In this document: positions 30,884 to 31,366 of the stretch, piece after piece | How the letters are laid out: each line of letters begins with the position of its first letter | How positions within the stretch are numbered: the stretch's first letter is position 1 | Source: Galeopterus variegatus | Lineage: Eukaryota | DNA: 41,880 nt | Reading direction: 5' to 3' | NCBI RefSeq assembly: GCF_000696425.1 | Contig: NW_007726576.1 | Location: forward strand, 660,522 to 702,401 | Position numbers and translations under genes: made by a program | Notes under the pieces: model-generated | Database searches by the model: none | Seen by the model: the letters and a program-made list of their open reading frames with translations, nothing else | Told to the model about the DNA's origin: nothing

Positions 30884-31366
30884 AATGAACCCATTCAATC
30901 TGTTTTCATATATGTATGTGGAATGAAACTGTATATGTAAATGAAATGAATAAATGAGGGTACTTCAGAAAGTTCATGAAAAGGGCCGGCCCGGTGGTGC
31001 ACTGCTACAGTGCGCCGCTTGGGAGTGTGGCGGCGCTCCCGCCGAGGGTTCGGATCCCACATACAGACCGGCTGCTCACTGGCTGAGCGAGGTGCGGGCG
31101 CAACACCGAGGGTTGCGATCCCGTTGCTGGTCCCGGTCCGGTACAGGCGCGACACTGAGGGTTGCGATCCGTTGCCGGTCACGAAAAAAGACAAAAAGGA
31201 AAAAAAAAAAAAAGAAAGAAAGTTCATGAAAAGATTTATATTATCTTCTACTTTTCCATGAAGTACTCTCATATACACAGTTTCATTATGCGCATATATG
31301 TCACCTATACATATACAGTTTCATTTCATTATATATATATGAAAACAGATTGAATGGGTTCATCCA
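30884..31366. repeat. Foldback / inverted-repeat element: ~90-105-bp arms (30884-30970 and 31261-31366, about 85% identical) around a ~42-bp loop now split by a class A SINE
   Basis: The left arm 'gaatgaacccattcaatctgttttcatatatgtatgtggaatgaaactgtatatgtaaatgaaatgaataaatgagggtactt' matches the reverse complement of the right arm 'aagtactctcatatacacagtttcattatgcgcatatatgtcacctatacatatacagtttcatttcattatatatatatgaaaacagattgaatgggttcatcc'. Confidence 0.7.
30984..31217 (+). mobile_element. tRNA-derived SINE, class A, inserted in the loop of the palindrome
   Basis: GGGCCGGCCCGGTGGTGCACTGCTACAGTGCGCCGCTTGGGAGTGTGGCGGCGCTCCCGCCGAGGGTTCGGATCCCACATACAGACCGG...GTCACGAAAAAAGACAAAAAGGAAAAAAAA. The 16-bp TSD GAAAGTTCATGAAAAG is at 30968-30983 and 31218-31233. 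Confidence 0.9.

Follow-up and report, generated by a model that had tools for sequence, protein, structure and literature searches.

The described systems closest to the locus presented here are quasi-palindromes generated by template switching (TSMs). Like our locus, they occupy a single site, consist of close inverted copies with an extra direct copy nearby, and are intronic and AT-rich. They also form a hairpin along their whole length, and their arms gained substitutions and indels later on (PMC10710096; PMC13100816). A single template-switching event can leave behind inverted repeats, alone or mixed with direct ones (PMC10710096), and if the switch takes place between imperfect arms it can extend and homogenise them (PMC13100816). 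A difference lies in size: TSM-derived miRNA hairpins have stems of about 35 bp, whereas the arms observed here measure 86-108 nt. Another comparison is offered by the human palindromes PATRR11, PATRR17, PATRR22 and PATRR8, which are likewise AT-rich, non-coding and about 200 bp long, PATRR17 (about 190 bp) being intronic as well (PMC1851657, PMC7999016). In contrast to our locus, PATRRs are nearly perfect and have no appreciable spacer.

Palindromic MITEs such as MADE1 resemble our locus in a different way. They are short and non-coding, carry an inverted repeat along their whole length and fold into hairpins; MADE1 is also the source of the mir-548 family. They differ from the sequence studied here, in which neither a TA or other target site duplication (TSD) nor superfamily termini were found, no second copy was found in the analysed DNA and the searched collections, and part of the repeat is duplicated in the flank. 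Finally, L1-mediated SINE retrotransposition accounts for the insertion which now interrupts the palindrome. The A-rich tail, a TSD of 17 nt, the YYYY/RR nick, B-box-like motifs of the form GGTTCGnnCC, the body of several units and the many copies of graded divergence in the same stretch of DNA are all in good agreement with this process, and nothing about them is unusual.

The window, that is, the whole stretch of 41.9 kb analysed here, is mammalian. It contains remnants of L1 ORF1 and ORF2 (Pfam Transposase_22) and, additionally, many tRNA-derived SINE copies with A-rich tails. On the minus strand, an exon encoding a PARP catalytic domain is located at 25396-25686 (E 1.2e-10). Another minus-strand exon, at 4416-4742, matches the end of a VIT domain less strongly (E 1.2e-4; 22.6 bits, below the Pfam cut-off of 26.5). 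A G+C-rich, ORF-dense stretch lies towards the high-coordinate end, at approximately 40.8-41.5 kb. From the sequence, these features appear to belong to a PARP4-like gene, its 5' half together with the promoter lying within the window. The palindrome would be situated in an intron of this putative gene, whose exons are on the minus strand. With respect to the host gene, the plus-strand SINE within the palindrome (30984-31216) is in antisense, and a minus-strand transcript of the locus corresponds to the sense direction.

The left arm of the palindrome comprises positions 30882-30967 (86 nt, 71% A+T) and pairs with a right arm of 108 nt at 31259-31366. A repeat search resolved three collinear inverted blocks: 30882-30917/31331-31366 (36 nt, 94%), 30919-30939/31308-31328 (21 nt, 95%) and 30944-30967/31259-31282 (24 nt, 79%). 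Global alignment of the left arm with the reverse complement of the right one gave 79 matches, 7 mismatches (5 transitions and 2 transversions) and 22 gap columns, the latter grouped in four gaps. Identity is thus 92% over aligned bases and 73% with gaps counted, and the value of about 85% given for these reverse complements in the first-pass annotation lies between the two. The outer part is conserved best, with 54 of 58 nt matching, and contains as its core the 27-mer GAACCCATTCAATCTGTTTTCATATAT, which is identical between the arms and has no further occurrence in the window. The right arm exceeds the left by 22 nt, mainly through the stretch 31288-31300, which is missing from the left arm; it also carries an internal duplication, CATATAC(AC)AGTTTCATT, with a spacing of 38 nt.

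The local alignment score of the arms is 132, compared with 52 +/- 6 for shuffled sequences and a maximum of 107 among 300 random, equally spaced pairs taken from the window. No significant extension of the palindrome into the flanks was found (30830-30881 against 31367-31405; 192 of 500 shuffles score as well). The quasi-palindrome is real and statistically solid, but ordinary. A fold-back artefact of the assembly was rejected as well, since such an artefact would not leave substitutions and four indels between the arms. Without the SINE and one copy of its TSD, the arms would be separated by 16 + 25 = 41 nt, one less than the approximately 42 bp estimated earlier, and the pre-insertion palindrome would measure 235 nt. 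The 25 nt (31234-31258) are the remainder of the original spacer and stay un- or weakly paired in the predicted hairpin. This is where the locus departs from the symmetry of PATRRs: with 7 mismatches, 22 gap columns, and a spacer that was 41 nt long before the SINE arrived and is 291 nt now, it is clearly imperfect.

Two further inverted structures are present in the window. At 7244-7349 lies a TA-rich, microsatellite-like overlapping palindrome of low complexity, with arms of 58 nt that are 72% complementary. A second long inverted repeat is formed by 35835-35921 and approximately 36612-36695. Its arms of about 87 nt are about 87% identical and lie about 690 nt apart; the repeat may extend outward by a few nucleotides, and a SINE (36703-36932) is located at its outer right end. 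This structure could be an old DNA transposon with long terminal inverted repeats (TIRs) or another local inverted duplication.

In the left flank of the palindrome, the middle part of the arm occurs a third time. This partial copy (TATAGAATACAGTTTCATTCATAGATTTTATATA, 30845-30880, plus strand) has the orientation of the right arm and is inverted relative to the left one, and it forms a smaller hairpin with 30921-30934. The 13-mer ATACAGTTTCATT illustrates the arrangement. It is found four times in the window, once with a single mismatch, and all four occurrences fall inside 30852-31325: one in the left flank (+), one in the left arm (-) and two in the right arm (+), one of the right-arm pair being the mismatched one. 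Compared with the arm middle, the flank 30845-30880 scores 32, the maximum of 500 shuffles being 31. The copy is short (about 35 nt) and AT-rich, which weighs against reading it as a trace of local duplication. Taken as it stands, the locus shows an inverted copy beside its template, a direct copy as well, and no transposon hallmarks. Direct and inverted copies at one locus, with no TSD, fit a local inverted duplication better than a MITE.

We therefore lean, with some reserve, towards a degenerate quasi-palindrome within an AT-rich intron of a PARP4-like gene, which would have originated by local inverted duplication and was then hit by a SINE. The inverted copy would have been produced by template switching of a DNA polymerase, or by fold-back in replication or repair, and not by transposition; afterwards the arms would have diverged, through substitutions (about 8.6%) and four indels. 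For one template switch, however, arms of 86-108 nt are long, so that several steps or another route of inverted duplication may have been involved.

The first-pass annotation had considered foldback or MITE-like transposons instead. The inverted repeat would then be the relic of a non-autonomous element that inserted as a near-perfect hairpin of 235 bp and has family copies elsewhere in the host genome. Indeed, it covers the whole putative element around a short spacer, its size is typical of MITEs, and conservation is best within the outer 27-58 nt, as would be expected of termini bound by a transposase. The second long-TIR-like structure (35835-35921 and approximately 36612-36695) may be counted in favour of this origin, too. 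The ends, however, do not behave like those of a transposon. Candidate end pairs lying up to about 15 nt from the boundaries of the inverted repeat were all scanned for direct repeats of 2-12 nt. No TSD of this length adjoins any plausible end pair, and no boundary pair up to 15 nt inside or outside the ends is bordered by an exact direct repeat of at least 4 nt. The nearest TSD-like matches are low-complexity motifs of the type TTCATTCA, 9 nt long with 1 mismatch, which lie 14 and 8 nt outside the ends.

The termini themselves read TGAATGAACCC...GGGTTCATCCA. Elements of the hAT superfamily start with CAG or TAG, Tc1/mariner elements are flanked by TA, and piggyBac elements have CCC...GGG ends next to TTAA. 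The ends of the palindrome do not resemble any of these, and neither TA nor TTAA flanks it; an internal CCC/GGG, which is part of the inverted repeat, is bordered by TGAA/TTCA and not by TTAA. Furthermore, a portion of the supposed element recurs in the neighbouring flank, which would not be expected after a clean insertion.

As to family members, no other copy is present in the 41.9-kb window. The 21-mer of the outer core gave no match in metagenome and viral contigs, collections essentially without mammalian DNA, and its two matches in bacterial MAGs extend over 21-24 nt only, which is chance level. An 18-mer of the inner arm gave 104 hits in metagenome contigs, none over more than 46 nt and none together with a partner arm, again as expected by chance. 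In case of an open frame of 73 aa that spans spacer, right arm and flank, a protein word search, run without a positive control, returned no candidate. "Single copy" hence refers to 42 kb plus collections with essentially no mammalian DNA, none of which includes the host genome. An arm divergence of 8.6% would, in addition, demand that DNA transposons were active about 20 million years ago. Except in bats and a few further lineages, recent accumulation of DNA transposons is reported to be lineage-restricted (bioRxiv 10.1101/2022.12.28.522108). With no abutting TSD, no superfamily termini, a duplicated flank and no second copy in the window, the transposon proposal did not find support, and we consider it unlikely.

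A different origin is suggested by the sequence to the left of the palindrome. The palindrome is located just 3' of an L1 remnant, the C-terminal part of ORF2 in sense orientation (30577-30790). Judged by a younger L1 at 16.2 kb, the 3' UTR of this element is expected to run for about 390 nt past the YYAAIKK motif and hence across the palindrome. The arms might then be two fragments of one interspersed repeat, e.g., the AT-rich 3' end of an L1, which came to lie in opposite orientation by independent insertions. In reverse complement, the left arm and its flank are indeed weakly similar to two L1 tails of the window (9 of 300 and 8 of 300 dinucleotide shuffles score as high; p about 0.03). This similarity is marginal after multiple tests, though, and the matches fall in non-equivalent parts of the two L1s, while the other two of the four tails compared show no similarity. 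Neither arm has a poly-A or poly-T run at its outer end. Two copies inserted independently, if they came from a repeat of the age of the flanking L1, should also differ by far more than 8%. We thus regard two independent insertions as quite improbable. The material that was duplicated may nevertheless be repeat-derived, possibly from an old L1 3' UTR, as far as the sequence indicates.

Returning to local inverted duplication as the preferred origin, the relative ages of the components can be compared. The arms are nearly free of CpG and differ at 7 of 86 positions (Jukes-Cantor 0.086); four indels come in addition. The SINE deviates from its consensus at 5 of 207 sites, of CpG type alone. Provided that the arms were identical inverted copies at the start, the palindrome is thus older than the SINE by a large factor. 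At a typical mammalian neutral rate, which is a rough figure, the arm divergence would place the palindrome at about 20 million years. The flanking L1 remnant aligns only weakly with a younger L1 of the window (score 32, compared with 18.5 +/- 2.7 in shuffled sequences). As the arms are 92% alike and this L1 is far more diverged, the duplication is much younger than the old repeats that surround it.

The SINE is a young, tRNA-derived element of 233 nt on the plus strand (30984-31216), with a body that reaches to about 31183 and contains three B-box-like units (GGTTCG/GGTTGCGATCC), followed by an A-rich tail at 31184-31216. Eight copies exist in the window, and the seven others are 84-95% identical to this one. 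From the consensus of the eight, the copy within the palindrome differs at five sites, all of them C-to-T or G-to-A changes and, as read off the alignment, each affecting a CpG of the consensus. The element presumably resembles the dermopteran t-SINE/CYN family, the relevant papers (Piskurek et al. 2003; Schmitz & Zischler 2003) being listed in PMC3531059; no paper with a consensus for it came up in the literature search.

The duplicated target site AGAAAGTTCATGAAAAG lies at 30967-30983, where it begins with the left arm's last paired base and continues into the original 41-nt spacer for 16 nt, and again at 31217-31233, with 17 of 17 nt identical. The perfect TSD of 16 bp noted before is thereby confirmed, the length being 17 nt, or 16 nt when its first A is counted with the A-tail. 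The element accordingly carries the hallmarks of L1-mobilised SINEs: an A-rich 3' tail, a flanking TSD within the expected range of about 7-20 nt, a YYYY/RR nick and many family copies. A scan of both strands of the 235-nt pre-insertion sequence for sites of the L1-endonuclease type found only two YYYY/RR sites in total, both at the same position, and one of them is T-rich: TTCT/GA. This sole T-rich site coincides with the nick implied by the TSD boundary 30966|30967, i.e., 5'-TTCT/GA-3' on the bottom strand (30965-30970), cut between 30966 and 30967.

From this we infer that target-primed reverse transcription of the L1 type inserted the SINE into the spacer. The first nick would have been set at TTCT/GA, at the junction of left arm and spacer, and the second 17 nt further, which would have given rise to the 17-nt TSD. 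The insertion had been described as lying exactly in the loop, the most accessible part of an extruded cruciform. It does lie within the spacer, yet at the arm/spacer junction 30966|30967 and not in the centre of the loop. Accessibility of a cruciform is not needed for an explanation either, since the position is accounted for by the sequence preference of the endonuclease, which used the only T-rich YYYY/RR site. Cruciform exposure of the pre-insertion palindrome seems unlikely in itself, because a spacer and an asymmetric centre make a palindrome poor at extrusion. Longer spacers lower hairpin formation at replication forks (PMC7999016), and in case of PATRR17-short even a small asymmetric centre abolishes cruciform extrusion (PMC1851657). 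By enlarging the spacer from 41 to 291 nt, the insertion would have made a DNA hairpin or cruciform even less likely, and following the published rules for palindromes the locus should be still more stable now.

Several observations concern other SINEs of the window. The 27 nt upstream of two independent insertions are alike, namely 36676-36702 (...TTCTTTAAAAAGTTTGCTGCT|GGGGCCGG) and 30957-30983 (...ACTTCAGAAAGTTCATGAAAAG|GGCCGG), probably because the L1 endonuclease prefers the same kind of target in both cases. A second SINE, which is of another type, follows the palindrome on its right at a distance of about 85 nt (31453-31628) and has the TSD ACATGGTCTCTG; its second unit, 31534-31608, is tRNA-Val-like according to ARAGORN. 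The repeat that hosts it is one which we take to be of an ancient MIR/L2 type. Furthermore, the window contains three tandem duplications of 99-100% identity: 3198-3670 (unit of 103 nt, 4.6 copies), 32917-33257 (171 nt, 2 copies) and 36834-37173 (188 nt, 1.8 copies). The 103-nt and 188-nt units visibly include the end of a SINE plus adjacent flank. These duplications are either very recent events at SINE borders or assembly artefacts.

On the level of secondary structure, the 235-nt sequence with the SINE removed is predicted to form one hairpin, with -106.2 kcal/mol as RNA (z -15.8) and -61.9 kcal/mol as DNA (z -12.1). The whole-length hairpin anticipated by the first-pass annotation is therefore borne out by folding. 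In the prediction for the present-day minus-strand RNA, the arms still pair (-190.7 kcal/mol, z -12.6), and the RNA hairpin is very stable on both strands, with the SINE present or removed. By these folds, a long, imperfect RNA duplex within the PARP4 intron of the pre-mRNA is possible; it would be comparable in kind to inverted SINE pairs, and no function is indicated.

The arms also give rise to two spurious ORFs. One, of 127 aa, occupies 30895-31278 on the minus strand and runs through left arm, antisense SINE and spacer, and the other, of 63 aa, covers 31162-31353 on the plus strand. Both end in ...YMKTD*, which is trivial because the arms form an inverted repeat. For the 127-aa ORF and two further ORFs of the window, no exact product was found on record, where the choice of start codons may explain the misses. 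These mirrored ORFs had been attributed to AT-rich arms. They exist and are a by-product of the inverted repeat, but the arms are not richer in A+T (71%) than the 300 nt to their left (74%).

Given such a stable fold, a functional hairpin RNA in the PARP4 intron has to be considered, be it a lineage-specific miRNA, a mirtron-like transcript or an endo-siRNA, and this would be compatible with any of the scenarios of origin. From its intronic position, the hairpin would be co-transcribed with the host gene. It is documented that new miRNAs can arise from intronic hairpins made by template switching, and pri-miRNA processing prefers a stem of about 35 bp (PMC10710096). The stem predicted here, with about 86-100 bp, is two to three times as long and departs from the canonical pri-miRNA, which has a stem of about 35 bp and an apical loop of at least 10 nt; moreover, the loop is now interrupted by the 233-nt SINE. 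In E-value mode, a search of 30700-31500 against Rfam gave as its best matches mir-1277 with 21.2 bits (gathering threshold 81) and mir-3149 with 18.8 bits (gathering threshold 100), at E values of at least 0.37. No family comes near its threshold, and the sub-threshold matches are all generic AT-rich hairpins. In gathering mode, the whole window yielded two tRNA-like SINE heads elsewhere and nothing at the palindrome. A pre-miRNA-like locus, as had been suggested before, hence receives no support from a score of 21 bits against 81 and a stem of about 86-100 bp, and we judge a functional hairpin RNA to be extremely improbable.

More far-reaching interpretations would be either an undescribed and fairly young family of foldback DNA transposons in a non-bat mammal, with arms diverged by about 8.6%, or a lineage-specific hairpin-RNA gene in the PARP4 intron that was born by template switching and later disrupted by the SINE. 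That one of these holds seems very improbable to us. If a genome-wide family existed, it would hint at unexpected DNA-transposon activity in the lineage of the host, and nothing found here suggests so.

From a biological point of view, the locus is of little significance. It is a textbook case of how imperfect palindromes arise and decay within mammalian introns, and the position of a retroposon inside such a palindrome can be explained by the preference of the endonuclease alone, without cruciform extrusion.
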